Below, one piece after another: positions 13,981 through 53,600 of a stretch of 60,124 bases of DNA. The position numbers were made by a program, and so were the translations under genes. The notes beneath the pieces were generated by a model that saw only the letters and a list, made by a program, of their open reading frames with translations, did not search any database and was not told where the DNA came from. Source of the stretch: an uncultured virus (IMG/VR IMGVR_UViG_3300037245_003898) (Duplodnaviria > Heunggongvirae > Uroviricota > Caudoviricetes); the IMG/VR virus record IMGVR_UViG_3300037245_003898; one strand, given 5' to 3'. The first letter of the stretch is position 1. Each line of letters begins with the position of its first letter.

Positions 13981-14209
13981 ATTCCCTCACTTCCAAAACT
14001 ATAATCCGCATTTCCATCCCTTGATAATCAGGATTATGCTCATACTGTTTTTTAGCACTCTTGGCCCAATCCAGGGTGGTGAATGTAGTATTAAGAAGCT
14101 CAATAGCTCCATGCCCATCTTCATAAGCAATGCCATAAGCCACACCATCGCGATACACATTACTTAGCGATGAGCGACGAGAATCTGAAGCTAAAAGATC
14201 AACAATCAT
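13970..14209 (-). CDS. hypothetical protein (79 aa)
   Basis: ORF with overlapping start/stop junctions inside the split dnaE locus. Confidence 0.65.
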   Translation of the reverse strand: MIVDLLASDSRRSSLSNVYRDGVAYGIAYEDGHGAIELLNTTFTTLDWAKSAKKQYEHNPDYQGMEMRIIVLEVRECDD

Positions 14210-15549
14210 TCTGTATAAACTTCTGGTTTTATTCCTAAGTCGTCCTCAGAAATGAACTTTTTCGAATCAAATCCTAGGAAACGCTCCCAAAGAAGATCTT
14301 GTTCAAGCGGGTCTACGCCTTCGGTAATACCAAGGCATTTCAGCAACAGCGATCCAAAACCAGAACCACGAATTCCCGCCGCAATCTTGTTCTCTTTCGC
14401 AAATCTCATAATGTCTTCAACAATCAGGAAATAAGTGCTAAAATCATATCGCTTCGTATCCCAGATTAGCTTGATATCATCCAACTCTAGTTTTAACCGC
14501 TCATGGTGACGAGTAGAATTGTCAAAACCAATCTTCTTCAAACCCTGCCATGCTAAAACTGAGAGATACTCATAAGGATCACTATAGCCGTCAGGAAGGT
14601 CAAAGCGAGGCAGGAGCATTTGCTCGCCGAGCACGATATCTGAGTAATCGCATTTCTCGGCCAATTCTACCGTATTGCTCAAAACGGACGGAATATGACC
14701 AAAAATCTTAGCCATTTCTTCTTTGGACTTAAAGTAGAACTCCTCGTATGGAAACTTCAGGCGCTTCGGATCTTTGATGAGACGACCACTGGACATGCAC
14801 ATCAAAACTTCATGAAATTCAGCATCTTGCTTTCTTACATAATGACAGTCGTTTGTCGCTATGATTTTGATATCCAGTTCTTTAGCCAGTTTCTGTATAT
14901 CAGATAGAATTCGCCCTTCGCTCTCCAACCCGTGATACATCATCTCCAAGTAGAAATCTTCCCCGTAGATATCTTTGAACAATGTTGCCGCTTTCTTGGC
15001 CTTATCATATTCGTCAATGGAAAGATTCCAGTTGATAACATTACTCAAACAAGCCGATGTGCAGATAACCCCCTCTGAAAGCTCGGCCAACAATCCAAAA
15101 TCCAAACGAGGGTCATAGTAATAACCGTCCAGCGATGCCCGGTGAGATAGGGTGCTAACGTTCTGGAAACCCTTGTGATTCTTAGCAATGATATTGATAT
15201 GACGATTGCCCTTTCGCCCGTCCTGTTGTCCAGGCACATCATATGACGTGCCATCAGGACGATGCATAACAGTGTCATTTTTGGACTTGCATTTATGATT
15301 CCGCGCCTGATAAGCCTCCATCCCTAAAATCGGTTTGATATCTTGCCGGCGACATTCTTTGAGAAACACAATCGCCCCAGCGAAAGTGCCGTGGTCAGTC
15401 ATTCCTACGGCCTTCATACCCATTGCCTTGGCGGTTGAGACGAGACCGGGAATCTTCTCTCCGTCTCGCTCGATATCACAGATAGAAGAAAGTCCATCAA
15501 ATTTTGAGTATTGCGTATGATTATGTATATGGACAAAATCAGGGGTCAT
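14206..15549 (-). CDS. dnaE: DNA polymerase III alpha, N-terminal part (PHP domain plus start of palm)
   Basis: FVHIHNHTQYS, MTDHG, KPILGMEAY, TSACL, ATNDCHY, YFKSKEEM, YFLIVED, RGSGFGSL, LLWERFL. Confidence 0.95.
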   Translation of the reverse strand: MTPDFVHIHNHTQYSKFDGLSSICDIERDGEKIPGLVSTAKAMGMKAVGMTDHGTFAGAIVFLKECRRQDIKPILGMEAYQARNHKCKSKNDTVMHRPDGTSYDVPGQQDGRKGNRHINIIAKNHKGFQNVSTLSHRASLDGYYYDPRLDFGLLAELSEGVICTSACLSNVINWNLSIDEYDKAKKAATLFKDIYGEDFYLEMMYHGLESEGRILSDIQKLAKELDIKIIATNDCHYVRKQDAEFHEVLMCMSSGRLIKDPKRLKFPYEEFYFKSKEEMAKIFGHIPSVLSNTVELAEKCDYSDIVLGEQMLLPRFDLPDGYSDPYEYLSVLAWQGLKKIGFDNSTRHHERLKLELDDIKLIWDTKRYDFSTYFLIVEDIMRFAKENKIAAGIRGSGFGSLLLKCLGITEGVDPLEQDLLWERFLGFDSKKFISEDDLGIKPEVYTE

Positions 15550-30758: not shown

Positions 30759-32497
30759 AAATCATCTTCCGTAAAATTGAGACCGCCAGCATCACCGGAA
30801 ACAGAAAAATCTTTTGAGATTGATTCAATAACCTTAGCATTAGCGAGAACAGCCCGGCCTCCAGTTCCTTCTTCACCTAAAGCCCACTCACGCATAGCTT
30901 CGATGTCTTCTCGCCGACTATTATACAGAGGTTGGAATTTCCCTAATTCAGCAACAACGTCTTCAGTGGTTATAGGTCGGCGACCATCAGAGAACGCAGT
31001 AAATAGTGCATTGTTGATTCCCTTTTCGAGTTCTGCCGGACTGTAATTCTCACTGGCTTCAGCTATTTTGTTCAGTTCAAATGTGTCAGGGTCTCGTTGT
31101 TTTCTAGCCAACAGACATGCAGTTACTTCCGCTCGCTGGTCAATATTTGGGAGATCAACGAAGAAGATTTCATCCAGTCGTCCCGCCCGCATGAACTCAG
31201 GTGGGATATCAGTTACATTGTTGGCAGTGCAGACAACGAACACCGGCTTAACTTTATCTTGCATCCAAGTCAAAAGAGTTCCAAAAACCCGATTGGTAAC
31301 ACCACTATCAGTCATGTTGGAACTCTTTACTCCACCGATTCCCTTTTCAATCTCGTCCACCCATAAAATCGCGGGAGCTACAGCTTCTGCAATCTTGATG
31401 ACATTGCGCATGTTTTGTTCGGATTCACCAACCAGTGACGTAAAGATAGCCCCCATGTCCAACCGCAACAAAGGCATTTCATAGTAAGATGCCAGAGCAT
31501 CACAAGACATCGATTTGCCTGTTCCCGGCACTCCCACTAATAAAATCCCCTTGGGAACTTCTAAGCCAAATTTCGCAGCATCCTCGCTGAATCCTTCTTT
31601 GCGTATCTTAAGCCATTGCTTTAGTGCGGCCAAACCACCAATGTTATTGAAGCTGAAACGGGGGTCTCGACATTCCAAAATGCCATTCTTGCGGATAAGC
31701 TGCTTCTTCTCCTCTAAAATAGTTGGTATATTAAAGTCTTTGTGCTTGACCAGAGTCTTGGCAAATGCGTTTTCTGCTTCTGTTAGTGTCAAACCTGAAA
31801 CTGCGTTAAGCAGATCTTCCTCTCGTTTCTGAGCCGACTTCAGAGCGTCAGGATACTGAACTGGAATATCCTTTACGATAGCATGCAAAGATCGTTGCAA
31901 CTCGGCCTTAGATGGATAAGGAAAATCCACCACTGTCATTTCTGGACGCAAACCTTGAGGACAGATAAAAGCGTGAGAGATAATCACTATCGAACAAGCG
32001 GATGGAATGCCCGCAAACTCCTTCAGCATCCGCTCGATAACAGGAACCCCTCTATCCCATAAGAAATGATGCAGATCATAGAACAGATAGATGTAGCCAT
32101 TGAAGGCTCGGGTTTTCTTGTCCCGCATGACTTTGTTGTCTTCTCGGGCCTGGTCTACTACCCACCCTACTGCTGCCTCGGGAATTTTGTGGATTTCATT
32201 ATTGGCCGCATTGACTTGTTTATTATCGTCCGTGTCAATCATGCCACGAGACATATCCCATTGAAACAGCTTGTAATTCTCTGCGGCTGCAACCAGTTTG
32301 AAGCAATCGGCTACTCGCCGTTCTTCATTCGTGATAACATAGAGGAGCTTGTACCGACTGTTCGTTAAATAGGCGACTTCGAGACCAACTGCTCCATCGC
32401 CCATCTCTTGTAATAGCTTCTTATGCTTAGCCCGCTTCTCTTTGTCCGTCTGAGTGACTGGCTTCGGCTTTAGCTTTAACTTTGGCTTCTGAGGCAT
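30755..32497 (-). CDS. Ycf46-like AAA+ ATPase
   Basis: VITNEERR, EKKQLIRKNGILE, IGGLAALKQWL, GVPGTGKS, LWVDEIEKG, TANN...PPEFMRAGRLDEIFFVDLP, IEAMREWA. Confidence 0.9.
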   Translation of the reverse strand: MPQKPKLKLKPKPVTQTDKEKRAKHKKLLQEMGDGAVGLEVAYLTNSRYKLLYVITNEERRVADCFKLVAAAENYKLFQWDMSRGMIDTDDNKQVNAANNEIHKIPEAAVGWVVDQAREDNKVMRDKKTRAFNGYIYLFYDLHHFLWDRGVPVIERMLKEFAGIPSACSIVIISHAFICPQGLRPEMTVVDFPYPSKAELQRSLHAIVKDIPVQYPDALKSAQKREEDLLNAVSGLTLTEAENAFAKTLVKHKDFNIPTILEEKKQLIRKNGILECRDPRFSFNNIGGLAALKQWLKIRKEGFSEDAAKFGLEVPKGILLVGVPGTGKSMSCDALASYYEMPLLRLDMGAIFTSLVGESEQNMRNVIKIAEAVAPAILWVDEIEKGIGGVKSSNMTDSGVTNRVFGTLLTWMQDKVKPVFVVCTANNVTDIPPEFMRAGRLDEIFFVDLPNIDQRAEVTACLLARKQRDPDTFELNKIAEASENYSPAELEKGINNALFTAFSDGRRPITTEDVVAELGKFQPLYNSRREDIEAMREWALGEEGTGGRAVLANAKVIESISKDFSVSGDAGGLNFTEDDL

Positions 32498-32996
32498 GTT
32501 TTCCGTCCGTAGCTTTTCTGGGTTGTACTATCACACTTACATGCCGAGGATTCTTCCGTGGAGAATTAGGCTTAAGATCATACTCGAAATGGCCGAGTAT
32601 CTCGTTTAATTTTGCAGTGGCTAATTCGGGATGGGCTCGTTCTCTACCTCTCATTTCCACTACAATACGAACATCAAAACCTTTATCGAAAAACTTCTTA
32701 ATGTGAGAGACCTTGACATGTTGGTCATGTTCGTCGATACGCATACCAAACTTCATCTCTTTCAGATGATGTGCATGGTTTTGCTGCTTTTTGGCCTTTG
32801 CTTTCTTCTTTTGGTCATAGAGCCATTTGCCTCGATCGAGAATTTTGCAAATCGAGTTTGCCCCTTGCTTCGATACCTGAACCAGATCCAATCCTTCTTC
32901 CCTGGCCAAATCTTCGGCCTTTCGGAAGTCCATTTTACCTAACATTTCGCCATCTGATTTCAGAACAATAACTTCAGAACTTAGTCTGTCTTGCAT
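32427..32996 (-). CDS. infC: translation initiation factor IF-3
   Basis: DGEMLGKM...AEDLAREEGLDLVQVS...ICKILDRGKWLYDQKKK, LKEMKFGMRIDEHD...K..HIKKFFDKG..V...MRGRERAHPELA. Confidence 0.92.
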   Translation of the reverse strand: MQDRLSSEVIVLKSDGEMLGKMDFRKAEDLAREEGLDLVQVSKQGANSICKILDRGKWLYDQKKKAKAKKQQNHAHHLKEMKFGMRIDEHDQHVKVSHIKKFFDKGFDVRIVVEMRGRERAHPELATAKLNEILGHFEYDLKPNSPRKNPRHVSVIVQPRKATDGKHASEAKVKAKAEASHSDGQREAG

Positions 32997-32999
32997 TAG

Positions 33000-33803
33000 T
33001 CAGCCTTTGAAGTAACCGCGATAGTTGATTCCTGAATAGTCCCGAATTCGATGGAACTCCAGTGCGGGCCGTGCGATAGAAATGAAGTCAACCATGTCTT
33101 CAGAGGGGTAGGTCGCGCCTGCGATAGTGCGCTCCATGGTTTCTTGCACAGCGTTTTTAGGAAAGTTTTGTAGAGCCTGTGATATACGCATCAGCCAATT
33201 GCTGTCATTCTTTTCTCGCAAAATACTCGCTGTCATAACGATACCTTTGGAACGCAGAAGCATCGATAAACCGCCCATGCGATACAGAGTCTGCGCATCG
33301 ACCTCCTTATGGGTCGTAGCAGGAGGCGCAGACACAGACGATTTTTCGGTAGCGGTTCCAAACTTTAGCTTGATAAATTGGTCAAGAAAACGTTCATTCG
33401 ACAAGGATTTCACGTATACAGGTTGTCCGAACAGCTTACGAGCGTGGGTTTCTGTCCACCAGTCCAAATAGTCTCGCATAATAGTGTTGTTCATCTGTTC
33501 ATCAACTCGTCTCACAAGCTCATCATAGAGAAATGCCATGTCTTCTCTATCACGAGCGCCAACTCGTTCCAAAGACATACTCTGATTGGACAGGGCTTCA
33601 ACGAGATATTTGACGAAATCAGACGGCTCCCATTGACGGAAAGGCTTCTTTCGAGGTTTTCTGGTAATCTTGGAGGCCATTCTTGAAATAGCGTCATTGC
33701 TGACATCTATCAGAGATGGTTCAATCTCCCTCATTACCTTGCGTTTACGTTTCGGTGGAATACTCATTCGCATTGCTTGGACAATCAACTGAGATTCATC
33801 CAC
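33000..33803 (-). CDS. hypothetical protein
   Basis: 267 aa, GTG start with AGGAGG RBS, downstream of a GTATAAT promoter. Confidence 0.8.
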   Translation of the reverse strand: MDESQLIVQAMRMSIPPKRKRKVMREIEPSLIDVSNDAISRMASKITRKPRKKPFRQWEPSDFVKYLVEALSNQSMSLERVGARDREDMAFLYDELVRRVDEQMNNTIMRDYLDWWTETHARKLFGQPVYVKSLSNERFLDQFIKLKFGTATEKSSVSAPPATTHKEVDAQTLYRMGGLSMLLRSKGIVMTASILREKNDSNWLMRISQALQNFPKNAVQETMERTIAGATYPSEDMVDFISIARPALEFHRIRDYSGINYRGYFKG

Positions 33804-33822
33804 AGTTCATAACCTCCTAAAC

Positions 33823-33829
33823 ATTATAC
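33823..33829 (-). promoter_or_regulatory. GTATAAT -10-type promoter heading the infC/AAA/dnaC/dnaB operon
   Basis: Intergenic TTGTATAATG, then AGGAGG. Confidence 0.65.
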
Positions 33830-33849
33830 AACTTTTCAGACCGGGCATC

Positions 33850-34704
33850 CTATTCAAATTCCTCAATCAGTTGGTTACGGACCCGATGTGGACTCTGGCC
33901 CCGCACGAGTAGCACTTCCGTGGCTTTGTCTTTTTCGTCCCGAGTCTGCAAATGCTTGAACACCGATTTTCGATAAATACGACAGCCCGCCGACACATAT
34001 GCTTTTATCAAAGGAGAATCTTCTGCCTTTGTCTCCCCTCCATAATAGCTCACACAGAATGACCCCTGGACCGCTTTCAAGATTTTCAGTAGTTCTTTAT
34101 GGTCAAATCCTTTATTTTTGTTCACCTCGTAGTAACAGCCCTCAACGCCTTCATACGGAGGATCAACGTAAAAAACGGTATCCTTGTGATCCCATTTTGC
34201 AATAAGAGAGCGATAATCCAAATTCTCCAGATAAACATTTTTCCACCGCCTGGCGACTTTCAGAATATTGGCTGGCAGACGGTTCCAGGTTTCATAGTTG
34301 ATCTCGCCGTCCCGGGTGATACTCCATGTCCCGTCCATTTTCGCGCCAAAGGACTGACGGTTAGCTATCAAGTACACGAGGGCCTGATCAAGCTCAGGAA
34401 GCCCTCTGAAGGCCACACTGTCTTTGGCGATAGCGAAGGCCTCAGCATAGTAACGACGAGCATACGGAGTAAGATACACCACATGTGCCAAATCTTTAGG
34501 GCGGTCCCGTAATATCTTGAAAAAGACATAAAGCTTCTCATCAACGTCGTTGTAGACATATCGGAGCTTAGGGCGTCTCTGGGCTACCGAGTCCAAGACC
34601 ACCCCAGAACCCCCGAATACATCTACGAAGTTTCTCCCGAGAGGGATATGACAAGTAATCCAACGAGCTATCTTAGCCTTGCCTCCCACTCTCTTGAGAA
34701 TCAT
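33850..34704 (-). CDS. Dam-like (D12 class) DNA adenine methyltransferase
   Basis: KRVGGK, FVDVFGGSGVV, YNDVD, LENLDY, FYVDPPY, ATEVLL. Confidence 0.93.
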   Translation of the reverse strand: MILKRVGGKAKIARWITCHIPLGRNFVDVFGGSGVVLDSVAQRRPKLRYVYNDVDEKLYVFFKILRDRPKDLAHVVYLTPYARRYYAEAFAIAKDSVAFRGLPELDQALVYLIANRQSFGAKMDGTWSITRDGEINYETWNRLPANILKVARRWKNVYLENLDYRSLIAKWDHKDTVFYVDPPYEGVEGCYYEVNKNKGFDHKELLKILKAVQGSFCVSYYGGETKAEDSPLIKAYVSAGCRIYRKSVFKHLQTRDEKDKATEVLLVRGQSPHRVRNQLIEEFE

Positions 34705-34722
34705 AGTTCATTTCTCCAAAAT
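34694..34722 (+). promoter_or_regulatory. candidate sigma70-like promoter for the + strand structured RNA
   Basis: TTGAGA (34694-34699), 17-nt spacer, CAAAAT (34717-34722); predicted start at about G34729. Confidence 0.4.
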
Positions 34723-34728
34723 GTTCGC

Positions 34729-35060
34729 GAGGCGGCGTCCCTCGTGGTCAATAACAATCTTCACCACTGAATCCTCTCACTTACTTTGTGAGAACTCTGT
34801 CAGTACGCATGGCAGAATTAGGAGAGTATGAATCTGCAACGCAGAGACCACTTCGAGCAGGATGTCGCCGCTTTGGGAACAAATATCCCACAGATGCCTG
34901 CATTAGGGACTGCCTCCAGCCGTGCCTGCCTGTAACTCCTAGGTAGGACGCTTCCACTGGCCCCTTATATCTCCTGGCTTTGTACGAGCTTCTCCCTCGC
35001 CTCGTTTGCGATCCGAGGACGATCCCACCGTCTTTGAGCGTGGTAGAGACGGTGCCAGAA
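34729..35060 (+). ncRNA. candidate large structured non-coding RNA of unknown class
   Basis: The only long gap without a credible ORF. A closing helix (34729-34742 with 34905-34916) encloses four hairpins, and four more hairpins follow. G-U wobbles consistently favour the + strand. Confidence 0.6.
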
Positions 35061-35078
35061 ACCACCTGACAGCTATGT

Positions 35079-35252
35079 TTACTTTGGCGCTTCAACGTTA
35101 CACTCTATATCATGCTCTCTCAGGACTCGCCACGCACTGAGGATTATCACGTTGGCTGTGTTGAGATCGACTGTTATGTATTCTGCGATCCTGCTGAGTA
35201 TTTCATTAGGGATACTCTCTGTCTTTTGTTGCTGAAGCAAATCGATTATCAT
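35079..35252 (-). CDS. small hypothetical protein (57 aa, below the ORF-track cutoff)
   Basis: Manual translation MIIDLLQQQKTESIPNEILSRIAEYITVDLNTANVIILSAWRVLREHDIECNVEAPK*, starting 13 nt after the MTase stop. Confidence 0.55.
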   Translation of the reverse strand: MIIDLLQQQKTESIPNEILSRIAEYITVDLNTANVIILSAWRVLREHDIECNVEAPK

Positions 35253-35265
35253 TATCTGCGTCCAA

Positions 35266-36711
35266 TCAAACGTTCCTGGCTATTATTAGATACTCACAGC
35301 TCTTGTTGGTCCTACCTTGTTTGGACCTATAGAGATAACGATACTCGTCATCTAGAACTACAATTTCCACATTTTTCTTGTATTCCCTGATGATCTCCGA
35401 GATGTATTCGATATCTTTCCAGCTATTGTCGTTGTAACTAAACAACCACATAGGGATATGATGGGCCGCTTCTAGCATTTCCCTGAAATGCTCTTCGTAG
35501 TGTTTGCGTCCTACGAATCTTTTGGCGTTAGCCTGGATATGAGGCAAAGACTCCAGAGGTTGACTGTAGATATACTCTTCTAGAAAACGGTATATCTCAG
35601 CATAGTTACTCGATGAACCTCCGTAGGGAGGGTCAAAATAGACGCAATCTACCCGGCAGAAGTCGCTCTGAAGCAGATCGATAACATCCATATTCACTGC
35701 GATACAGCTTCCTGGTACCTTCAAATCTGCGAACGTCCACCATTTCATTCCCTGTCCTGGCTTCCCTTCGGTTCCTCCCGTTCCTGCTCGGGTAAAGAAA
35801 TCCATTTCTGTGGAGCCTTCGTTTGTCCAGTGTTTTTTGAGCTGATTTTTCTGGTGAGCAAGACGAACATCAGTCTCGGCGAGAGCTTGTCCCCTGTGAA
35901 ATCGACCCTGCACCATACAATCCCTAAGAACATGTTGTTGAAGATTAGCCAAAAAAGCAGCCCTTTTGATTTTGCTGTTATATTCTGCTGTGGCTTTGTT
36001 TGACTTCATACCTTGCACGAAGTCGTTCACATATTTTGCAAACCACTTCTCAAAATTGAGGTCCATGTTTTTGTCGTAGTAGATGCCGATACGGCGATCT
36101 TGGTCTCCGTATTCCGCTTCTTGTCGTCTTCGGTGTGTCATTAGATCGTGGCTTTGGTCCACATTCCCAAAAGGAAGCCTAAGAATCACAGCCGTATTGG
36201 CCGCCAGGCTCAGGCTTTGGCCATAAAGCCCCGCAAGCTCATCGACATTGGCTCTGAAATTATCGAGGTGGCGGCATTCCTTTAGGGTGAACTTGTTGAA
36301 GCGACAGTTTTTACCCGGCGGCCTGTACTGTTTACCGAGGTAATTGTCCTCAACGAATGTTCCTTTATGAGCATTTTCGTTATGAAGCAAGAATCGTTTC
36401 TCTTCTTCGGTGAGTTTGATTCCTGGATTCTCGACAAAGGCGACTGAGTTAATATACGATGAAGTTAACAAATCGTTTGCCAGAACTCTTTTGCCCATCA
36501 TTTTGAAGAGCAGCGTTACGGCGGCGCTACCTGAGAAGGCGTCGAGAACGCTATCGAACTGGACATCGTGTTCAAGTAGAGTTTCGTAAAGTTGAAATAG
36601 GAGTTTCTTTTTGTTTCCTGTGTAAGGCAGAGGTAGTTTTTCGATTCGTTTAATAGGTAGAGCCATTGATGGAACAAGTGCATCTTCGGTATACATTTGT
36701 AGTTTCTTCAC
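35266..36711 (-). CDS. D12-class DNA adenine methyltransferase with long central insertion
   Basis: LPYTGNKKKL, LDAFSGSAAV, VLANDL, VYFDPPY, FSYN, EYLII. Confidence 0.88.
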   Translation of the reverse strand: MKKLQMYTEDALVPSMALPIKRIEKLPLPYTGNKKKLLFQLYETLLEHDVQFDSVLDAFSGSAAVTLLFKMMGKRVLANDLLTSSYINSVAFVENPGIKLTEEEKRFLLHNENAHKGTFVEDNYLGKQYRPPGKNCRFNKFTLKECRHLDNFRANVDELAGLYGQSLSLAANTAVILRLPFGNVDQSHDLMTHRRRQEAEYGDQDRRIGIYYDKNMDLNFEKWFAKYVNDFVQGMKSNKATAEYNSKIKRAAFLANLQQHVLRDCMVQGRFHRGQALAETDVRLAHQKNQLKKHWTNEGSTEMDFFTRAGTGGTEGKPGQGMKWWTFADLKVPGSCIAVNMDVIDLLQSDFCRVDCVYFDPPYGGSSSNYAEIYRFLEEYIYSQPLESLPHIQANAKRFVGRKHYEEHFREMLEAAHHIPMWLFSYNDNSWKDIEYISEIIREYKKNVEIVVLDDEYRYLYRSKQGRTNKSCEYLIIARNV

Positions 36712-38267
36712 GAAAGATCCTCAATGTGCTCAATCCTGTAAGCGGGCTCAGTGCGGTACATCTTCTCTCTGGTATTGGCATGGTCTAACAGATACTTATC
36801 GTGGATTACTGGGTCAATAGCAGTTGCAGTGCTTTTCACTGTTCCGTCTGGGTATGTAAATGGACGTGAAATTCGTCCAATTCGCTGCATTGCCCTTACT
36901 TGGGATTTTCCCTGGCCCGCGAGAATTACGGTATCCAGAGGTCGGACATCGATACCCTCATCGAATATGGTCGTGCTGACGATGCAGCTAATCTGCCGAC
37001 CTCTTAGTTGTTTGAGGCTTTTACTGCGTTTGATTTTGGTGCTCTTACCTGATAAAAACTGAGCACCTTTGATCATATGAGCTAGTTCTTTTCCATGGTC
37101 AATTTGCTGGACGAGGACAAGCACCAAACGGTCGTTACCGATGTAGGCATTCGCAATATTGGCTATGCAGCCGTTGTAGTAGTCATTCTCGACAACTTTG
37201 TCTTTGTAGATCGACTGCCATTGTTTAAATTTGGTCCGCTTGCCTTTGATATGAACCATCTTTATGTTAGGTCGGACAAGCCATTTGTCGGGATGCTCGA
37301 TTAGCTCAGTTGCAGTGATAACAGCGATCTTTTTGCCAAAACATGCTTGGATCATCATGTCATCGCCCTCATCTCTGTAGGGCGTAGCAGATGTTCCGTA
37401 TGTGTAATAAGCTGACTTTAGTTCACGAGCAACGAGTTGGCATGTATCGGCTCTCCAATGTTGGACTTCATCACAGATAGCTCCTCGGGCTTCACGGATA
37501 ACTTCCCGGATGTCCGCTCGGTACTGACCGATAGGCGTTTTATCATCTGAGTCCTCGCCGTCGAATTTGGTTTGCTTATCCCAACTCTTGCCTAGTGCTC
37601 TTACAGCAGTCTGGATGGTGCATACATTGACATCTTGGATATCAACAACACCCCCGCCCATCTGGCCGACTTTCAGACGAGAGCCATGGAATCGCAGTGC
37701 GGCCTCAAAACTTTCTTTAGCCTGCTCTAGCAAATCAATAGATGTCACGAAGAATATGAATGGAGCAACTCGCAGTTGCTCAATGATTCCAGCCGCCATG
37801 ATGGTTTTTCCCGAACCCGTAGCCGCCTGGATGATTCCTCGACTTTTGTTGCAAGCTGAATGAATAACCCTAAGCTGATAGTCTCGGTAAGTATACTCTC
37901 CCGACGCTGTTACATCAAAATTGGGTTCTGGTTTTTCGCGATAATCGAATATCTGAACGGGAATGTTGTGTTTGCTAAAGTAAGCTTGAGCGAGTGACAG
38001 TAAGCCTGTGGGAAAAAATGTTCCATTACGGTTACTTGACCAAAACTGCGGCTTCCATCCACTCCAGGCTCGTTTTATTGGATTTCCTTCGGCGTCTTTG
38101 ATCCAGCGCTGAAAGGCAGGGCTGAACATATAGCCCTGTGGACGAAAAGAGAGTTCTCGTTCAAGCTCTTTGAGCTGAGGGGCCAGAAGAGGCGCAGGCT
38201 CCTTGGGGTCACTAACCGTCGTGAATATGTTGCCGATCTTCAGGTTTAGAGGTTGATTCATTATCAC
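36708..38267 (-). CDS. SF2 (UvsW/XPB-like) DNA helicase
   Basis: YRDYQ, AATGSGKT, CDEVQH, SATPYRD, FDEGIDV, QRIGRISR. Confidence 0.92.
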   Translation of the reverse strand: MIMNQPLNLKIGNIFTTVSDPKEPAPLLAPQLKELERELSFRPQGYMFSPAFQRWIKDAEGNPIKRAWSGWKPQFWSSNRNGTFFPTGLLSLAQAYFSKHNIPVQIFDYREKPEPNFDVTASGEYTYRDYQLRVIHSACNKSRGIIQAATGSGKTIMAAGIIEQLRVAPFIFFVTSIDLLEQAKESFEAALRFHGSRLKVGQMGGGVVDIQDVNVCTIQTAVRALGKSWDKQTKFDGEDSDDKTPIGQYRADIREVIREARGAICDEVQHWRADTCQLVARELKSAYYTYGTSATPYRDEGDDMMIQACFGKKIAVITATELIEHPDKWLVRPNIKMVHIKGKRTKFKQWQSIYKDKVVENDYYNGCIANIANAYIGNDRLVLVLVQQIDHGKELAHMIKGAQFLSGKSTKIKRSKSLKQLRGRQISCIVSTTIFDEGIDVRPLDTVILAGQGKSQVRAMQRIGRISRPFTYPDGTVKSTATAIDPVIHDKYLLDHANTREKMYRTEPAYRIEHIEDLS

Positions 38268-38421
38268 ATTTGCTTGCGCATTCAGGACATATTCCTAACT
38301 GGCAACCTGCTTCACCACACTTGGTCATTCCTAGTGTTGGTTGTCCGCATCTGCTGCACTTGCTAAGTGAGTGGCTCACCTGGACGTTCTGGTTTTTCGA
38401 ATTTATTCTCTTTACCAACAC
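38212..38421 (-). CDS. small Cys-rich (zinc-finger-like) protein
   Basis: CSRC...CGEAGC...CPEC. Confidence 0.5.
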   Translation of the reverse strand: MLVKRINSKNQNVQVSHSLSKCSRCGQPTLGMTKCGEAGCQLGICPECASKCDNESTSKPEDRQHIHDG

Positions 38422-38596
38422 GTTTCCGCTTCCTTTTGCGTTTGGACTCTTCAGTCGGAGCTAATAGGAGCATTCCTTGCCCGGGAAACAGAGGTCCGGA
38501 CAGATTCTGTCCACCATCTGGAGTTCCACGGGAGTTAGGCTCATGCCCCGATAGCTGAGCTGTCCTCTGCATCGCTCGGATCAGCCAATTTATCAC
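38363..38596 (-). CDS. small hypothetical basic protein
   Basis: 77 aa with KRKRKRKR; fills the gap between neighbours with overlaps. Confidence 0.45.
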   Translation of the reverse strand: MINWLIRAMQRTAQLSGHEPNSRGTPDGGQNLSGPLFPGQGMLLLAPTEESKRKRKRKRVGKENKFEKPERPGEPLT

Positions 38597-38798
38597 TGTC
38601 TGTATCCCTTGCCTGAATGAGACTACTCAAGAGATTGTCAAATTTAGTGAGAATCCCCTGAAGTTTTCGATCCGCATCAATCGGTTTACCGTTGACCAGA
38701 TTTTTTGCTGTCAATACCTCTGTACGAAGCCGATGAACATGCATGATTACTTGTCCAACGAGATCGTCAGGTATCTTTGGTAGTTCTACTGTTTCCAT
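38541..38798 (-). CDS. hypothetical protein
   Basis: 85-aa helical ORF. Confidence 0.65.
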   Translation of the reverse strand: METVELPKIPDDLVGQVIMHVHRLRTEVLTAKNLVNGKPIDADRKLQGILTKFDNLLSSLIQARDTDSDKLADPSDAEDSSAIGA

Positions 38799-44674: not shown

Positions 44675-47600
44675 TTAAGCACTGATTGTGACAATATTAC
44701 TGACCACTGGGGCTCCTAAATCCAGGCCATCATACGGCGTTACCTGGACGTACCAGTATTCGCCCGCTCGTGTATAAAATGGAGGAGTAACCATTTCGCC
44801 CCTGAGATCCTGGACCTCGGCAAAGTCCTGCCCATTTGGAGAGTTAAACCATTTGATTTCGCTTTGATCAATTTGAATGCCGTTATCAACATCCAAATCA
44901 TCTAAAGTATACGACAAGGTCAACGTAGACTGAGCATTAGGAATAAGCGGTTCTATTTGAACGTTGTTTGCTATTGGGATACTATTAACAACAGTAATCG
45001 TAGAACTTGTCACAGTAGCTCCTGTTATAAGCACCGTCTTCGGGGTCACTTCAACCTGAATCTGGTTGCCAATAGTATGAGCACTCACACCTGCAATTTG
45101 TTCACCCGGAGCGATTGATTTAGGGTCGAAGTAAGGATCAGACTCAAGTTCCGAGAAAACACCCTCTTTGAATAACCGGCCATTAACATACCATTTGATA
45201 ACAGTCCCGACTTCTAGGGCGCTAGGCCCCGTGTCTTCAACTTCAAAGTCATACTGAACAACAAACGAGCTTGATGTGTCATATCGGTTGTTGATAACTC
45301 CGTTCCTAAAGGGGACTATCCTGACATCATCAGCACCTGGAGGACGAGCAACTACTATAACCGCAGGAGAGTAAACAGGAGAACCAAAAGATCTGCCATC
45401 ACTTGGGATGACGATATAATGGATTTTATCGTTAGGAACAAGTTTGTTACCAGACAGCAAATCACTATCAGACCACGATAGGTTATTTTGAATCTCAAAC
45501 AACTGTTGCCCGTTTTTGTACCAAGATATCAGAGATCCGCTCTCATCGTCATTGTTCAGGTCAATGAAGTCATACAAAGCAAAGATAGTATCCGAAGAAT
45601 TCGGATTCTGCGGCGAGATAGTCACATTAAGAACAGACGGGGCCACCTGGCTGATTAGGGCAGGTTTTTCATCGTTCGTACTATATATGAAACCAACGCC
45701 CTCCATGGTGATTGAATCAGAATGACGACGGTTTCTCAGGCGAAGTCCGACTCTCATTTTATCTTCGTTGGTGACAGTTATTTTGAATACCCTATCAGGC
45801 GGTTGCCGAGTATCGAAGTAGATTTCCCCTTCTCTCGGGTATAAGCGGAAACCAGTAAATACTGGGATTTCGACATTAGCATGGGCTCCACTTGGATCTA
45901 CTTGTACGATGTCAACCCTTGCTTCCGGATCCCATGACCCATAGGTGGTTTGGTATCGAATGTTATCATCTGTGGTTAGGGGCTCCGTTGGTACTGCTGA
46001 ATCAGCGTCTTCATCTCGCTCCAGCAAAAATGTCTTGCCGAATTCCTCAACGATGGGCCTTGCAGAACTATAGAAGTCAGCCCACTGATGGGAGTCAGAT
46101 GTGGCAACCCCAAGCTCAACAACGGATGCGGTAGGGATATCTCCTTCAAAAGCCATCGCTACTTGCTGAGCGTTAGTAAGGACATCTTCTGTATCTACAA
46201 AAAGTAAATCTTGTCTTTCTTGAGAAGTTTCCCAGGTTATACTGCGAAGCTTAGGAATTCCTGTGGCTGTTGCATCGTATTCCTCTGTGATCCCGGTTGT
46301 GAAACCCGTAGATAAGACAACTTCGAACTCAATGTACTGAGCGAAAAAATCTACAAAATCATGATTACCGCTACCTGTGAACCTTTCAGTCCAGTCAGTG
46401 TAATTGAATCCATCATCGCTGCTGCGGAGTCTTACTCTCCCTTGAGTATTATCGGGCAGGAAGAAGTCTAAACTCATAGCAGTAATTGACGACAGTTCGC
46501 TTAAATCCAATATATTAGTGTAGATGCCATATCCTAAACCACCTGTAGCCCCTCCCAAAGTGAGATTAAGAATCCAGTCTAGGAAAGATGTTGATACCAA
46601 CGTGCTTGATTGACCTCCTGTGTCTTTGGTAAGAGCATCCACATCAGATGATTCCGTTCTCTCTAACATTGCAGCCACACTAACAGGATAAGAAGTGCTA
46701 AATACTGTGTAAACGATAGGAGTGTTTCTATCCCCATCTATTGAGTTGACCTCTTCGGTGGCTGTGAATCTGCTGGTGAGAGACAAGTTCTCAGAATTAT
46801 CTGAGCAGATATAGATGACTTTCTTTTTATCCGCGAAAGTGTCACCGGCCATTGTCTGAGCGCCTTCGGTTAAGGCGTCATAAAGTTGACTAGAACCGAA
46901 TGGTATTTCGTAATCAATCGTATCGAGCAAAGTCAACGCATTTGATATAGTGTTAGTGCTGCCAGTCAGATGGCGCTTGATTTGTGGCACCCACGCCTCA
47001 ATATTGTAATAGTTAGTAGCAACGGTCGGAAGCTGATCCCTGATATCAGGCTGCGTTGGAAGCAATGTATCACAGAAAAGACATTGACCTGAACCTCGGT
47101 AATCCCCTCCCCCTGTCGGAGGGTTGCCTCCATCGTCATCGTCATCAGGCGGAGGCGGATCAGGGGGAAGCACGGGAGCCGCAGCATGTTCCAGAACAAA
47201 ACATGAAGCACTTGCCCCACCTGAACTTCCTCCTAACCCACCAGGATCGACACCACCACCGGGCTCATCCTCTCCGTCTCCTTCATCAGGCTCCTCCGGT
47301 GGTGGTGTTAGATAACCTCGGATTCTACTGTTGATTTCATCTTGTACTGCCAAATCAAACTCACTGACAGTTTGACCGAAGTAGATATCATCCAGCACTG
47401 TCAAAAACGTCTCTATGTCATAGAGTGGGCGCAACACTCCCGAGTTGACCACAGTTGGTGGAATCTCGACAGTCTCTAGCACATCCCCAAGGGCTGCGAG
47501 TTCTTCTCTGGTTAGATCGCCAGCGAATCTTTCATCAGTATCATCTGGAGTGTTTTGCAGTATTTGCTGAATAAACTCTGCAAGTCGCTGAAGATCAGCT

Positions 47601-50600
47601 AAGGGGTCTTCTGAACGAGGAAGCAGTGTGACACCCCCAACTCCATTCTCGACAACAGTTTCGTTTGTAGAGTATAAAACGGGGAATAAAAATATCCGCT
47701 CATTAAGTTTGCTGGCAGCATTGCGTTGGAAAGTGTCGCTGTTGGGGTCTATAATTTGGTTCTGAGCCTCGATTAGCCGAGCGATATCCAGCTCATCCTC
47801 AGCGTCAGGTAGATCCGGCACTCCCTCCCCAAACTCCCCGCCCAGAGCCCGTATAGCCGCTCGTTCAGCCAAAAACCCTATCAGAGCATCATCTACTTCG
47901 GGAACTCTCACTCGGCCTCTTACATCCACTCTCACGGGGTCTTCTATTATTTCGCCAGCATCGTTTGTTAATGTCAGTAGCAGACCGCCACTCTGAACGC
48001 CCAGGGTTTCAACTTGTTCAGGCATTTGAAGAACGTTGATTTGGACCCAACCTGATGCATGACCACTTTTTAGCCCGCCTGATAAGTAAATATCATCACC
48101 AAGAGCAATTGCTCTAAAGTGGCTGCGTCCGCTGTTAAAAGGAGTTCTTCTTTCGTAGAAGTTGTTACTGGACAGATCTATCGACTCATTACGGTTGAGG
48201 GTTGTAGACTGATTCTGGTTGCTGCCTCCCATGAAATAGGCTATATCCTGATGAGGAATATATACACATTGTCCATGATCTCTGCCTAGTGGAAGAACTG
48301 CCCATTCATCGTCTAGAGTGTCAGAAATGTCCATCCGCCAAGTAGAACCATCCAGATATTCGGTCTCAAGTATAAACTTGAATCCGGTAAGAGGGTAATA
48401 AAAAGCAGGAATAATAACGCCATCGCGGATTTCTGTTTCTTTCTCAGCCACAAATGCCATCTGTTCATCAATTGAGAGATTCTGATAATAGGCCGAGGTT
48501 AAAATAAATGACCTGAACTCATTTAGCAGTTCGTTTATTTTCGCCAAACGCTCGGCTTCGATTACCTCAGCGGGTTTAGGTATAGACCCGCCGTAAACGT
48601 AATAGCTGGACGTTTTGTCTCTCAAGAAGGCGAATGGAGTTATTCTTTTGTACATATCACTATTTGATGGTTCTATTTCAATCCACTCGTCGTCGGCTAT
48701 GGAATATCTAAGTATTTTATCGTTTAGCTCACCTGCTTTGCTATCGTTTACCAAATCCAGGATACCGCAAGTCACGTAGATATATCCGTTTTTGACTTGA
48801 GCATCACCGAAAGCCACTCCATAACCCTCGGGCATCGGTGCCAAGGTTGGATTCCAAGTTTCAGTGACAATATCAAATGCTTCAGTTTTTCTCGAAACTT
48901 CAAGCTGGCTATTGACAGTGACTTCAACTCCACCAATACAATAGATGTAATCCCCTGAGCTGACTGTCATTCCGTAACAACGAGGAGCAGGCATGTCTGT
49001 AGTGAATTCCCACTCCATGCTATTGGCGTTGTATACTTCACAGGTGGGAGTGATAGTAGTGGTGGCGTTATCACCTTTGACTGACCATCCACCCATCACA
49101 TAAATCAGGTCTGCTGTGCCAGGGTTGTTGCTGGCCATGAAGTGACCCATGCGATTAATGAGTCCTGCCGTTACTCTTTCATAAACATCGTCAACAGTGT
49201 CGTAAACGATAGCTTCACTATTGGCCGCTGATTCTTGTTCTGGGACATCTTCGGGATCTGGATTGGGGTCTGGTGGGTCGGTGATATCTTGGGCAATAGA
49301 GTTGCTCAATGTAATGCAACGAGTAATCTGACGGTCAACTGTTCCAAGTTTGTCATAACGACAAGTGACGTTAATCGTGGCGGTGAATTCTATGTTAGCT
49401 ATAGGTTCAATAGTGAAGTAGGCCAATGATCGAACATCACCAGTCGGGTTAATGTCAGGGTCGTTAATCTGTTGAGTGTAGATAACGCCACCAAGAGCCG
49501 GATCGCAGTAGTCTGGAATTCCAGCACAATCAGATAAGGTCACAACTCCCGAGTCATCATCTGGAATACTAAGTTCTATTATTGTCCCGTCAGGAACTGG
49601 CTCTTCTGCAAATGTGGCCTCAACCACGAAAGTGATACGAGTTTCATATTGGAACTCTACAATACGCTCGCCATTGGCTCTCGCATCAACGATTCTTACG
49701 TCTAAGGGCTCTTGGAATCCCGCGTATATTGGAGGCACGCCTGTTTCGTATTCGCCTCCGCCGAACAGCGTTATTTGCTGGTTTCCTGCCACGAGCGTTA
49801 CGCGTCCGCTGACAACCTCCACATTGTCCCATCGTACTCCCTCCGTAGGATAACATCCACTACTATCACAATAGCCTACCCACTCGCAAGGGCTAACTCC
49901 TTCTCCTCCACCGCCTGAACCTTCGCCTCCACCGGTACCTGATTCACAATCCATTTGTTTGGGGGCTGAGCCATCCCCCATGAACCGATTGAGTCGTAAG
50001 TAGAAGTCGGTTATTAATCCGTCCAGAGGGATATTCGCTACAGGGGTACTACCAGTCTCATCGGGTTCTACTGATTCGTATGTTAGCGGGGTTAATTCTC
50101 CAGTATAAGGGTCTTCATCGAATGTCACATCCCACAGGATCTCTCCTGGGGCAGAAATCTGAGCGATATATCCTTCAGGAATCTCCAATAACTGCTCTTC
50201 TTCTGTGCAGTTGATGAAACATTGCCAACCCGGCATCTCTGTAGCCAAAGCTGCATTCCGAGCAATCTGGAATTTCACAAGATGCTCCCCATCTGCCCAG
50301 GTGAAATAATGTGGATTACTCATCTGAGCCCCTATGGGTTGCGGGTTGGCTCCGTTTATGAAGAAATGACGATTAGCAAATTCTTTTTCTTCGCAAGAGT
50401 ATCCGAATCGGGCAGAGTCCTTGGCGGTTTGTTCCTCAACGATTGTGCTGGCGTGAATCTCATATTCTTCTGCCAAACAGCACCGCTCGGCTCTGGTAAG
50501 CGCTCCATCACCGCCTGTACATACAAGATTTATCCAATTGATCTCAAGGTTACCCACTGGGCCAAAAAACACATTACGAGCTACGCCAGAGATGGTGGCC

Positions 50601-53600
50601 GAGTAAATTCCTGTAATTAGCGGGAGTTCTTCGGTGCTATAGAATGGACGATCTTTACCGTTCTCTTTCTTGACTAACTCCCATTTAACTAAAGTCCCAT
50701 CAGTAACGGGAACTCTGTTATTGGGGTCCGGGTCGTCAGGATCCACTTGCCAGACAGTGGCAAATTGCTCTGCCACTTCGATTCCATCAGCATATGGTTT
50801 GGCAGCATCCAGTCGTATGAACAGACTATCGATAAATCTTATCTCATGAATTGCATCTACAAAGAATCCCACAAAGTCCAATGAAACATATAGGTCAACA
50901 AAATCAGGCAATTGGGGAGCGGGAACCTCAATATCAACAATGCTCTTAGAAATAAGTCTACCAGTTGGAACTCCATTGTAGTCCAGCTCTTCCTGGGTCA
51001 CAGCAGATGTCGAATAAACCCCCTCATCCATGAATGTGCGTTCAGATCTGATCGTAAGCGGGTTGGTCGAATCATGACTAAATAATTGAACAGTTACAGG
51101 AGTTCCGTCTGGGAGGGATTCTCCTTTGAATTGTAATTCTATTCGACAGACATAAGGTATCGTGGACCTGGCGTATCCTCCATTGAAACTCACGGGTTTA
51201 CAATCGTCTTGTTCGCCAGATTCATTGCAATAACAAATGGAGTCCAGTGAATCAATATTATCGTCTTCCCCACATCCAACGGAGATATGACGATTGGACT
51301 TGTTGACGGCAGTTATTTCGATAGGATGCTGGAAAGTGACAGTAACAATTTCTGTGTTGAATTCAAAGAGGTTTTCGCCTTCTGGATTGTCAGGGTTGGA
51401 GACTTTGTACTGGGCACCTATGTTCATGATGTAGCGCTCTCGACGAGCTAATATATCTCTGTCACCTGTAGGAGTGACGATGCCTTTGATAAGACCACTT
51501 TCGATTGTTGCATAAGTGAGGGATGTTTCTGCCTCTTCTTCATCGTTGTTGCAGTTTTCGTCAAGAGGAACACTAAAGTTAATTCTCGGATCACCTCCGT
51601 CAAGTGCATCTTCACAAGGAGTTCTCGGATTGAAGTTGTCACTATAGTCACCTAGTCCACCACCGACCCCTAGTTCTTGGCCATCATTTACTAGGGATCT
51701 TTTCTCAATAGTTGTACAAACCAGCAGGTTCATATCATCAATGTCTTGTAGCTTGCCGCCCTGCTTGTTGAGAAGATTAACGAAAACAAGAGCAGCTTCA
51801 CTAAGCCATAAGTCTAAGCGAGAGTTTTTGACAGTTGGGTTTTTCCACTGTAGAGAAAGCGTAATAGGGTTGATCACCTGAAGATGGAGATCAGAGATAT
51901 CTGCTGGAGGAAATACTAACTCCGACGTGGCTGTCGGAATTCCCACCAGATGTTGAGGCGCCGAAATTCTTCCCAAATTATCATAAGTCACTATCGTATA
52001 GAAATGAGAGATACCGTTAGTCAGCGTGATTTGAGCACCATCACAGTTTTTGCCTGATTCACGGTGAACGAGAGATTCACCAGTTGTATCTGCTATCAGG
52101 CCACCGTCACTAATTTGCAACTCTCCATTGGGAGAAACTCCAACAGTTGGAAAACGGTCAATCCCGAAATATACTTTAGTTCCTACCCATCTTGAATCGG
52201 TGGGGTTCCTCCATTGTAGGAATAACTTCCGGTCTCCTTCGAGAATAGTTTCGTTCTGGACTGCGCCAAGGGCAGGATTTGGAGCATCGTTAGTGGACTT
52301 TGGTATATGAATAGACAGAGCCCGAGCTTCGCTGCGATCACAAATCGCGCCCGAGGAGTTGACTGTGAAAACTCGATAGTAGTATTCCTCATTGTGAATA
52401 AAATCATTGGCATCTATATAATAGAATTCACCCTCACTTGCAGCAACAGTTGTTACCACTTCTCCGTCTTCATCGTGCCATGGAATCGAGAGATACTTAC
52501 GAACTATTTTGACGTATCCACCTTCGTAATCGAAATCGTTGCCAATGATCCAACTTAGTAAGACTTCTCGCTGTTTGTTATCAGGAGGAGTTAAAGCACT
52601 GTCATACAGAGGCTGATTGAATATTTCGCTCTCAGTTACATAAAGTGCTTCCCAATAAGCCGCGTCACGCTCCATTGTATGGATGCTAATCTGAGCTAGC
52701 GAACCAAAGAAGTCGCTTCCGGCCCAAGTTGTAGCAGAATTTGTGGGCTTAGCTCCAATGTACAGTTTTTCAAAGCCTCTGGTGTCAATGCCCGGACCAA
52801 AACCTACTCCGGTCACATTCACTCCATTGATATAAACAGTCAAGATATAGTTGGCCTGAGATAACGCCATAGACACCATCGTCCACTCTTTCTCAGGGAT
52901 AGGAGCGCTCGCAAGGCTACCTGAGAGCCCAGTAGTAATATCTGTGCTGTGGTTTACTGCTAGAACTCCAGTAGAATCAATTCCAACAACCCAACCGATG
53001 GTATTAGAGTTCTCATCCGCTGTCCCAATGACCCACTGATCAGTGGTATTGGCATATCTATAGATCCAGAAATTCAAAGAGAATGCATGAGCACCGCTTC
53101 CCGAGCCTTCTACCCAGGCCATATTGTCTGTGGCATCGACCTCGATGATATCGAATTCCCCATCGAATCTAACGCCAGCAGGTTTCCTGAGACCTCCTTG
53201 ATCATCATGAGAGCCACTTGCAGAATCTCCAGCCCAAAAACTATGTTCAACTACCTCGCTACCAATTGTGCCGTGGTTGCCTTGTCCAGACGAATCAAAG
53301 ACTAAATAACCCAATTCTTCTTTGAAGTTATAAATCAGCTCAGTGTTATTATCTCTTGCTACGCCAGGCAATATCCTAGGAACAGCAGTAGCGAAATTGA
53401 CACCTTGGGGAAGGATTCGATCTTGGGGTGTTCCCGTTATAAAATAGCCGGGGCTGTAATGCCGCTCTCCGTTGAACGACCATACTCCATAATAGTATAG
53501 CTGCCCATCTGTTAGTGGGGTGTCTTGAGCAGCTTGAATAATTCCTTCTGATACGACTATGCCATCAGCAGGATGAAGAGGAAATCTATCAGTCCTACGG

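Follow-up and report, generated by a model that had tools for sequence, protein, structure and literature searches.

The window analysed here, a stretch of 60,124 nucleotides (nt) from an uncultured virus of the Caudoviricetes (IMG/VR record IMGVR_UViG_3300037245_003898), carries at positions 34705..35078 a noncoding element that is probably a real and new structured-RNA family, matching no family in Rfam. We put the probability that the element works as a structured RNA, of one sense or the other, at roughly 0.7. Listed here without a strand, it fills the gap between the stop codon of a small gene, orf57, and the start of a Dam-like methylase gene, as delimited by the list of open reading frames (ORFs) and by relatives found with blastn and nhmmer. 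A preliminary description made from the letters of the window had proposed an undescribed multi-branched RNA at this place, encoded on the + strand antisense to the genes, with its own promoter, a five-way junction and a link to the Dam-like gene. The noncoding character of the stretch, its conservation above that of the flanking genes, the compensated changes in several helices and the lack of an Rfam family bear that proposal out, whereas the promoter, the exact junction and the Dam link do not survive. Helices are given below in + strand coordinates and letters.

The argument is carried by four sequences, the window and three relatives. The closest, L002, came from a metagenome scan with an alignment of Dam relatives (18 loci, one with the element) and is recognized by blastn (83.6% over 554 nt) and nhmmer (2e-114). 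L030 came from a scan of viral contigs with an AAA ATPase encoded near the element (80 loci, ~1.4 Mb); it is divergent (nhmmer E = 6e-9) and was the only copy among those 80 loci at that step. L094, the fourth copy, was found with a profile of the other three (nhmmer E = 0.043) and has a 23-nt blastn match to L030 (E = 0.019); its similarity is weak, yet its placement is exactly syntenic. In addition, sample run X2 holds a near-identical strain of the window, and two short divergent contigs (X2 record 4 and X5 record 8) match the core 34873-34923 only. All sample runs listed as matching 33800-35800 are of marine or marine-sediment DNA, and none is of RNA.

Judged by comparison with these relatives, the stretch 34705-35078 is noncoding, as no reading frame survives in them. 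Indels of 1, 3, 6, 1, 13 and 3 nt separate the element of the window from that of L002; a six-frame comparison gave about the same similarity to L002 in every frame and no significant similarity to L030 in any. The 104-amino-acid (aa) ORF on the - strand, which the preliminary description had weighed as a possible protein, is not conserved as one: the 13-nt indel puts it out of frame in L002, L030 has no counterpart, and its single match among 5.8 billion proteins is the ORF of L002 itself. A small + strand ORF (ATG at 34828, 36 aa) was considered as coding and rejected; it is in frame in L002, but L030 lacks the start codon and carries a frame-shifting insertion of 2 nt. Inspection by eye shows the nucleotides of that region conserved in L030 despite the frame shift.

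The element is also better conserved than the genes around it. Nucleotide identity between the window and L002 is 91.7% over the element (321/350) and 95.3% over its 3' domain (221/232), as compared with 79.5% for the C-terminal coding stretch of the upstream methylase gene (MT481), 80.5% for orf57 and 66.3% for the Dam-like gene. The X2 strain has 28 differences in 423 nt of MT481 and 6 in 529 nt of 34558-35092 (5/352 and 1/177 over the element). Against L030, blocks of 10-13 nt are unchanged (CAGGATGTCGCCG, GGAACAARTATCC, GCCCCTTATA and TTTGTACGAG), and between them lie unalignable segments of differing length. The most conserved core (34858..34888, +) consists of CAGGATGTCGCCG (34858-70) and GGAACAAATATCC (34876-88), both found in the window, L002 and L030 with one purine position free to vary. 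GCCCCTTATA and TTTGTACGAG (34960..34988, +) are identical in the same three sequences, including their 9-nt spacing; since each occurs once in the window, they are not a repeated promoter motif.

On the covariation seen among the four sequences, the best-supported helix is P1, a long, imperfect, long-range helix of 34731-49 with 34846-72 that is absent from the preliminary description and covaries better than the five-way junction proposed there. Its 5' strand (34731..34749, +) is made up of P1a (34731-37, GGCGGCG), P1b (34738-40, UCC) and P1c (34744-49, GUGGUC), and its 3' strand (34846..34872, +) of the matching parts of P1c (34846-51, GACCAC), P1b (34860-62, GGA) and P1a (34866-72, CGCCGCU). 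The minimum-free-energy (MFE) fold of the window from RNAfold pairs these strands, with CUC and GAG joined between P1b and P1c, and P1 is present again in L030 folded alone and in the RNAalifold consensus. In a MAFFT alignment of the four sequences 39/40 cells of P1a and P1b are paired and 3/10 pairs are changed on both sides; 9/500 shuffles reached as high, and slid controls were 27-69% paired with 0-1 double-change pairs. The P1a strands read GGCGGCG/CGCCGCU in the window, AACGGCG/CGCCGUU in L002, AACGGCA/CGCCGUU in L030 and AAUGGCU/AGCCAUU in L094. Those of P1c are GUGGUC/GACCAC in both the window and L002, GUGGUU/AACCAC in L030 (C-G to U-A) and GUGGC/GCCAC in L094 (U-A to C-G).

P1 encloses a variable domain (34750..34845, +), the least conserved part of the element, with hairpins at 34775-93, 34796-34816 and 34833-45. 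Its length is 96 nt in the window, 105 in L002, ~170 in L030 (by eye) and 252 in L094, and it cannot be aligned with either L030 or L094. Within it, hairpin 34833-45 passes from UCUGC/GCAGA in the window to CUCCG/CGGAG in L002, and hairpin 34775-93 from UCUCAC/GUGAGA to the register-shifted CCUCUC/GAGAGG. At ~6091-6190 of L030, in the sense of the element, there is an insertion of ~78 nt with two copies of the P1c 3' strand plus flank (GAUCACAUUCAAG, AACCACAUUCGAC); it looks like a local duplication.

Downstream of P1 lies a series of hairpins that had been listed in the preliminary description, three of which (34874-90, 35000-18 and 35026-54) keep their pairing through changed letters in L030 or L094. 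H5 (34874..34890, +; UGGGA, loop ACAAAUA, UCCCA), the former inner stem, is invariant in L002 apart from an A>G loop change, and becomes CGGA/UCCG in L030 (one G-C to C-G) and CAGG/CCUG with a longer loop in L094. H6 (34925..34947, +; CCUGCCU/AGGUAGG, one G-U pair on +) has an unchanged stem and 13 more loop nt in L002, and its counterpart in L030 is unclear; in the 151-nt contig X2 record 4 the same position reads CUUAUA...UAUAAG, as seen by eye from a 30-letter loose end. H8 (35000..35018, +; CCUCG/CGAGG) differs in L002 by a loop change only (35009 C>A), in L030 CCUACA/UGUAGG takes the position of the entire stem, ahead of a conserved ACGAUCC, and in L094 its counterpart is weak (CUCAG/UUGGG). 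H9 (35026..35054, +; 11 bp, with core CCGUC/GACGG at 35028-32 / 35048-52) shows U-G to U-A and 3 more loop nt in L002, a kept core in L030 and CCGUG/CACGG (C-G to G-C) in L094.

A script confirmed that every complementarity listed in the preliminary description is present in the window, and the two halves of its closing helix pair as claimed: GUCCCU (34737-42) with AGGGAC (34905-10) by 6/6 Watson-Crick pairs and GAGGCG (34729-34) with UGCCUC (34911-16) by five Watson-Crick pairs and one G-U. The inner half (5' strand 34737..34742, +) keeps 6/6 pairs in L002 and changes its letters in L030 (AUUCC/GGGAU; G-C to A-U and C-G to U-G); three pairs are left in L094 by eye. As it overlaps P1b and crosses P1a, it would be an alternative pairing or a pseudoknot. 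The outer half is broken in L002, where 3/6 pairs are mismatched. The inner stem 34812-37 fails as well, its partner sequence being absent from L002 by eye, and hairpin 34976-90, of 3 bp only, lacks a counterpart in L030. The exact five-way junction is not among the folds that RNAfold gives, and P1 competes with its hairpin 34744-67 and with part of the closing helix. Of the loop contacts proposed as a pseudoknot, UAGGAGA (34819..34825, +) with UCUCCUG (34970-76) is conserved: the window and L002 have 7 pairs each, L030 has 6 and L094 ~5 (AAGGA/UCCUU, by eye). As neither side varies, there is no covariation here. The other contact, with CTCCT at 34936-40, is lost in L002.

As far as these comparisons go, P1, H5, H8 and H9 show covariation by compensatory substitutions. 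The window and L002 differ at 11 sites within 34846-35078, and by our count every pair of P1, H5, H6, H8 and H9 survives these differences; five fall in hairpin loops and two keep pairing. P1, H5 and H8 are also predicted independently in the window and in L030. A global consensus fold of three sequences, aligned block by block, proved unstable for the 3' domain, and the H8-H9 assignments rest on script tables because MAFFT misplaced the 5' strands of L030 and L094. With only four sequences, covariation statistics of R-scape grade are out of reach.

The position of the element is fixed relative to its neighbours. In gene-strand order the window reads MT481, orf57, the element, Dam, orf267; L002 (with L001) reads MT481, orf57, the element, an extra unannotated ORF, Dam, orf267; L030 reads MT481, the element, orf267, with Dam ~10 kb away; and L094 reads MT481, the element, orf267. 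All four copies thus follow a long-form MT481 directly, with orf57 in between in two of them, and precede either orf267 or inserted cargo. From these gene orders the constant neighbours are MT481 and orf267 and not Dam, which disposes of the idea that the element belongs with the Dam-like gene: it abuts orf267 in L030 and L094, and an ORF intervenes before Dam in L002. Genes have been gained or lost on both flanks (orf57, Dam and the extra ORF of L002). The latter ORF (770-1522, +, start probably near 899) lies between element and Dam, is absent from the window and has no Pfam match or family; by eye it carries a D...EVETK motif of the restriction-endonuclease kind, and together with the Dam-like gene it may form a restriction-modification pair.

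Four more distantly related loci (L024, L028, L031 and L037) have the same gene order and a short-form methylase, and since the corresponding gap there is at most ~20 nt, they lack the element. The long form has 475-481 aa and the short form 364-393 aa, the difference being insertions of ~100 aa between catalytic motifs. The element was found only at long-form loci, a comparison of four loci with four in which the two groups are also phylogenetically separated. Public data hold more than 100 clusters of long-form MT481 relatives at 60-87% identity (236 proteins at E <= 1e-40), many of them on contigs of 10-580 kb. One of these, P0072, is a 66%-identical long-form methylase on a 557-kb contig that bears the NCBI name of a Promethearchaeota (Asgard archaeon) metagenome-assembled genome, and further MT481 relatives lie on contigs of 400-580 kb. 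This could indicate either that large phage-like contigs were binned with archaea or that the host range is unusual; the IF3 and DnaB-like genes of the window are of bacterial type.

Further searches added no members. An exact-pattern scan of viral contigs with two window motifs gave no matches, a two-block pattern scan of the same contigs returned L030's own contig only, and an 18-mer scanned against genome contigs gave four matches, none of which extended beyond 18-20 nt and which we attribute to chance. Dam alone and MT481 alone found no relatives among viral contigs; MT481 alignments found L030's contig and L106 only. L106 has a 562-nt noncoding gap in the same place and was not counted, as similarity to any copy was not detectable. 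At 4297-5311 of L106, which is a more distant relative, the gap directly follows the methylase (459 aa, 40% identical) and is itself followed by an ORF that is RNase H-like by eye; the gap could be a very divergent copy of the element. The GenBank phage collection gave no DNA match.

As for the strand that is read, we consider the two senses to be at near even odds with + slightly ahead, and a free-standing + sense ncRNA, antisense to the phage genes, a little short of an even bet. Several observations point to the + strand: (i) folding z-scores are lower on + than on - in 4/4 sequences; (ii) the covariation term of RNAalifold is -4.5 with five double-change pairs on + versus -1.5 with one such pair on -; (iii) G-U pairs within H6, H9 and hairpin 34796-816 become A-C mismatches when read on - and (iv) the conserved loops are A-rich on + (ACAARUA, GAAACC). 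The G-U pairs and the lower z-scores thus speak for the preliminary claim that the fold favours +; most of the covarying pairs are Watson-Crick on both strands and so uninformative on sense.

The main competitor is that the structure is read on -, as a long intercistronic leader in a polycistronic messenger RNA that controls translation, processing or stability of the next gene, which would be Dam in the window and a short leader ORF plus orf267 in L030. One route would have UCUCCUA pair alternatively with an internal AGGAGA or with the real Shine-Dalgarno sequence just 3' of P1. We consider this possible but doubtful. All window genes are on -, so a - sense RNA of this stretch is to be expected anyway and is almost certainly made; no terminator-like site was found between orf57 and Dam, and P1, H5, H8 and the core of H9 are Watson-Crick and would form on either strand. 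Also in its favour is ATTTCTCC..ATGTTC (34710-26), which lies beside P1, is common to L030 and reads on - as the ribosome-binding site of the next gene; the resulting GAACAU-N-GGAGAAAU stands 6-9 nt before the start codon in both the window and L030 (by eye). Finally, a strain variant, 34789 T>C, gives A-C on + and keeps pairing, as U-G, only on -, and the raw MFE is slightly lower on - (-122.2 vs -119.3). On the other hand, z-scores on - are about zero or positive in 3/4 sequences (-0.76 in L002), the G-U pairs listed above are lost, and the downstream gene differs from contig to contig. In L002 the ribosome-binding block has decayed to GGCGGA though the element is 92% identical. At 350-570 nt the element would also be very large for a translational operator, and it matches no riboswitch or leader family.

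Besides those features that fit a - leader better, a number of points weigh against the + sense ncRNA. Folding energy is unexceptional: only the window nears a z-score of -2 (-1.85 and -1.96 on +, with 4/150 shuffles as good; -0.14 and -0.06 on -), L002 has -1.22 on + and -0.76 on -, and L030 (-0.34 and +0.42) and L094 (+0.51 and +1.21) are like shuffles. Any folding advantage over shuffles is hence weak on the + strand of the window and does not show in L030 or L094. Neither a promoter nor a terminator on the + strand is shared by the window with L002 or L030. The promoter proposed in the preliminary description, TTGAGA-N17-CAAAAT (34694-34722, +), is at chance level: it has 9/12 matches, three such sites occur in the 2.5-kb region against 3.2 expected from shuffles, it overlaps the region of the Dam start codon, with TTGAGA falling within the Dam gene itself, and both L002 and L030 have other letters at this place. 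We do not count it as belonging to the element. The scan covered promoters of the sigma-70 type. Moreover, the + strand is C-rich here and not G-rich, there are four sequences only, with L094 resting on weak similarity and synteny, and the supported helices were partly located by eye in L030 and L094. A partner and an action in trans enter by inference only.

The model that we favor is that the element is a rare new structured-RNA family in a small clade of large marine-sediment phages, made from a separate accessory ncRNA gene on the + strand. It would have two parts: a domain of freely varying size closed by P1 (34731-49 with 34846-72), and a 3' domain (34873-35078) in which highly conserved linkers connect four hairpins. 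The two halves might be tied together by pseudoknots 34737-42/34905-10 and 34819-25/34970-76. Such an RNA might act by binding a protein, as a folded scaffold or decoy, and not by base-pairing with a target, and the always-adjacent long form of MT481 would, given the strict linkage, be the first candidate for that partner. In short, we infer that the element acts as RNA and not as single-stranded DNA, in the + sense, in trans and with some partner.

A second alternative, which we regard as improbable, gives the element a role as DNA: hairpins for a replication origin or primosome assembly when single-stranded (the preliminary description had itself named a structured single-stranded origin as its alternative), a recombination hot spot for cargo swaps, or, with P1 as inverted ends, a mobile element. 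The location in a replication module fits, with helicase and methylase on one side and orf267, IF3, AAA ATPase and DnaB-like helicase on the other, as do the gains and losses of genes on both sides, and co-varying inverted repeats could be two sites for one protein. Against this, the element has no iterons or repeats and is G+C-rich instead of A+T-rich. The H8, H6 and 34833-45 stems are replaced by unrelated sequences, so that what is preserved is pairing and not a sequence for protein recognition. A mobile element is disfavoured because the element is single-copy in the window, with no paralogue or repeated motif there, and occurs just once in each related contig that carries it, across the ~1.4 Mb searched; a miniature mobile element was rejected on the same single copy and on the interior between the P1 arms being the least conserved part.

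It is less probable still that the element has no function of its own, being a young spacer or gene remnant whose conservation stems from recent ancestry or recombination and whose hairpins are chance pairings picked by eye. The z-scores of L030 and L094 are indistinguishable from those of shuffles, sequences are few, and the region is mosaic (Dam 63% vs neighbours 77-83%), so that local differences in identity could reflect recombination. However, the element persists where methylase identity has dropped to 64% (L030) and lower, where blocks of 10-13 nt stay unchanged between indels; P1 has more compensatory changes than its shuffled and slid controls, differences avoid paired positions, and no frame or known-gene remnant was detectable in the element. 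Very improbable, finally, is the boldest reading, in which the element is the RNA partner of MT481, a scaffold, guide or substrate that directs or regulates methylation through ~100-aa RNA-binding insertions, or else a new ribozyme class; if true, this would be unprecedented for a D12-class methylase.

Comparison with described RNAs gave no family. Rfam 15 had no match at gathering score anywhere in the window, and at E up to 10 there were only unrelated chance matches that differed per homologue (RMST_1 E 4.2; SCARNA7 E 1.6; snoR28, whalefall-1 and RRE E 2-4). ARAGORN found no tRNA or tmRNA gene in the 60 kb. The preliminary description had seen no tRNA, tmRNA, RNase P, signal recognition particle (SRP) or group I/II intron signature by eye. 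Rfam models of RNase P RNA, 6S and SRP RNA did not match, and CCAGAAACC, which resembles the RNase P CR-IV motif, is not kept in L094. Neither Rfam, nor searches of phage DNA, nor literature searches that were not aimed at this sequence gave a described counterpart.

Four known systems nevertheless offer points of likeness. GOLLD and ROOL usually adjoin tRNA genes; neither matched at E up to 10, and the 60 kb hold no tRNA. They belong to the large 'ornate' RNAs of bacteria and phages whose function is not known (10.1101/2024.12.08.627333, PMC5737381). These RNAs resemble the element in spanning hundreds of nt with many helices, in coming from phage or prophage metagenome DNA, in having no associated coding function and in placing variable peripheral helices around conserved linkers. 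The element differs in that it is smaller than GOLLD, lacks a tRNA neighbour, is known from four contigs only and may be antisense to genes. Leaders of phage messenger RNAs, including riboswitch-like ones, share with it a position directly upstream (on -) of a ribosome-binding site, with Shine-Dalgarno-like and anti-Shine-Dalgarno-like segments; the element is far longer than known operators, its downstream gene varies, no cis-regulatory Rfam family matches, and the wobble pattern favours +.

Phage group I introns are likewise 250-500 nt long with many hairpins and variable peripheral extensions, and L002 has an adjoining unannotated ORF of a possibly endonuclease kind. We rejected a group I intron since no core matched (with E up to 10, both strands of the window, L002 and L030 gave neither Intron_gpI nor a subtype), MT481, orf57, Dam and orf267 are complete, and the motif that ends MT481 homologues is the same whether or not the element follows. 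The order of paired segments does not fit the group I P7/P3 core consensus by eye. The omega RNA of IscB/TnpB (HEARO) is also an RNA of a few hundred nt always beside one protein gene, and MT481 has insertions. In this case the neighbour is a methylase and not a nuclease, HEARO did not match, no guide-like variable end was identified, and the MT481 association compares four loci with four others, two groups that phylogeny separates as well. The parallel is meant as an analogy for the reading as an RNA partner of MT481 and for no other.

The window belongs to a large phage-like contig, its own proteins being recorded on a 122-kb contig in the protein database, and all of its ORFs of at least 200 aa are on the - strand. 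G+C is 0.54-0.56 across 34800-35100 vs ~0.45 in the surroundings. The ResIII/DEAD helicase gene (36708-38267, -) belongs to a DNA-metabolism module and precedes MT481 (35266..36711, -), the 481-aa long-form D12-class adenine methylase (PF02086 at 1.8e-11) that is the constant upstream neighbour of the element; beside the other copies it has 83% aa identity in L002 (C-terminal piece) and 63-64% in L030, and a C-terminal piece is present in L094. The 57-aa gene orf57 (35079..35252, -) flanks the element and is 77% identical in aa to L002 271-444, where its start overlaps the MT481 stop; it is missing from L030 and L094, and family searches gave nothing except a sub-threshold match to MinE.

On the other side, the Dam-like methylase (33850..34704, -; 284 aa, PF02086 at 1.3e-21) is the downstream neighbour of the element in the window only. 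Its 63% aa identity to L002, compared with 77-83% for the other neighbours, makes it look as if it had been swapped in like a cassette. The protein database gives this gene of the window a length of 248 aa (P0001), with the start placed 36 residues inside the ORF. The full ORF is probably the correct one, because the alignment of relatives such as P0002 (284 aa) begins at the first methionine. There follow on the - strand, in order, the 267-aa orf267, an IF3 homologue, a 580-aa AAA ATPase and a DnaB-like helicase. For orf267, searches of Pfam, PHROG and PDB turned up no relative. The IF3 homologue (32427-32996, -; PHROG 9787, 2.2e-32) adjoins the AAA ATPase gene in at least 12 related viral contigs.

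Three features elsewhere in the window also came to our attention. The DNA polymerase is split (11002-15549, -), with 14206-15549 corresponding to positions 43-435 of PHROG 405 and 11002-12912 to positions 439-940. Between the two lie a 355-aa ORF (12913-13980), whose C-terminal half resembles thymidylate kinase, and a gap of 225 nt (13981-14205); no intron family matched in this region at Rfam gathering scores. A second long gap, just upstream of the helicase gene (38268-38785; 518 nt, G+C 0.47), has no - strand ORF of at least 90 aa. Lastly, a 3130-aa ORF (44675-54067, -) has two weak matches only, both to PHROGs of unknown function (residues 1616-1788).

If the element is real as an RNA, it would add one more family to the few large phage-borne structured RNAs without known function. 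Many such motifs have been found, and it would be a sound candidate motif rather than a surprise. The more than 100 public clusters of the neighbouring methylase put a proper covariation analysis of both structure and strand within reach. The element is also tractable for biochemistry, given its fixed position after one methylase, its two domains with possible pseudoknots and the turnover of methylase and possible restriction genes nearby. Its carriers are very large uncultured phages of marine sediments that also encode translation genes.

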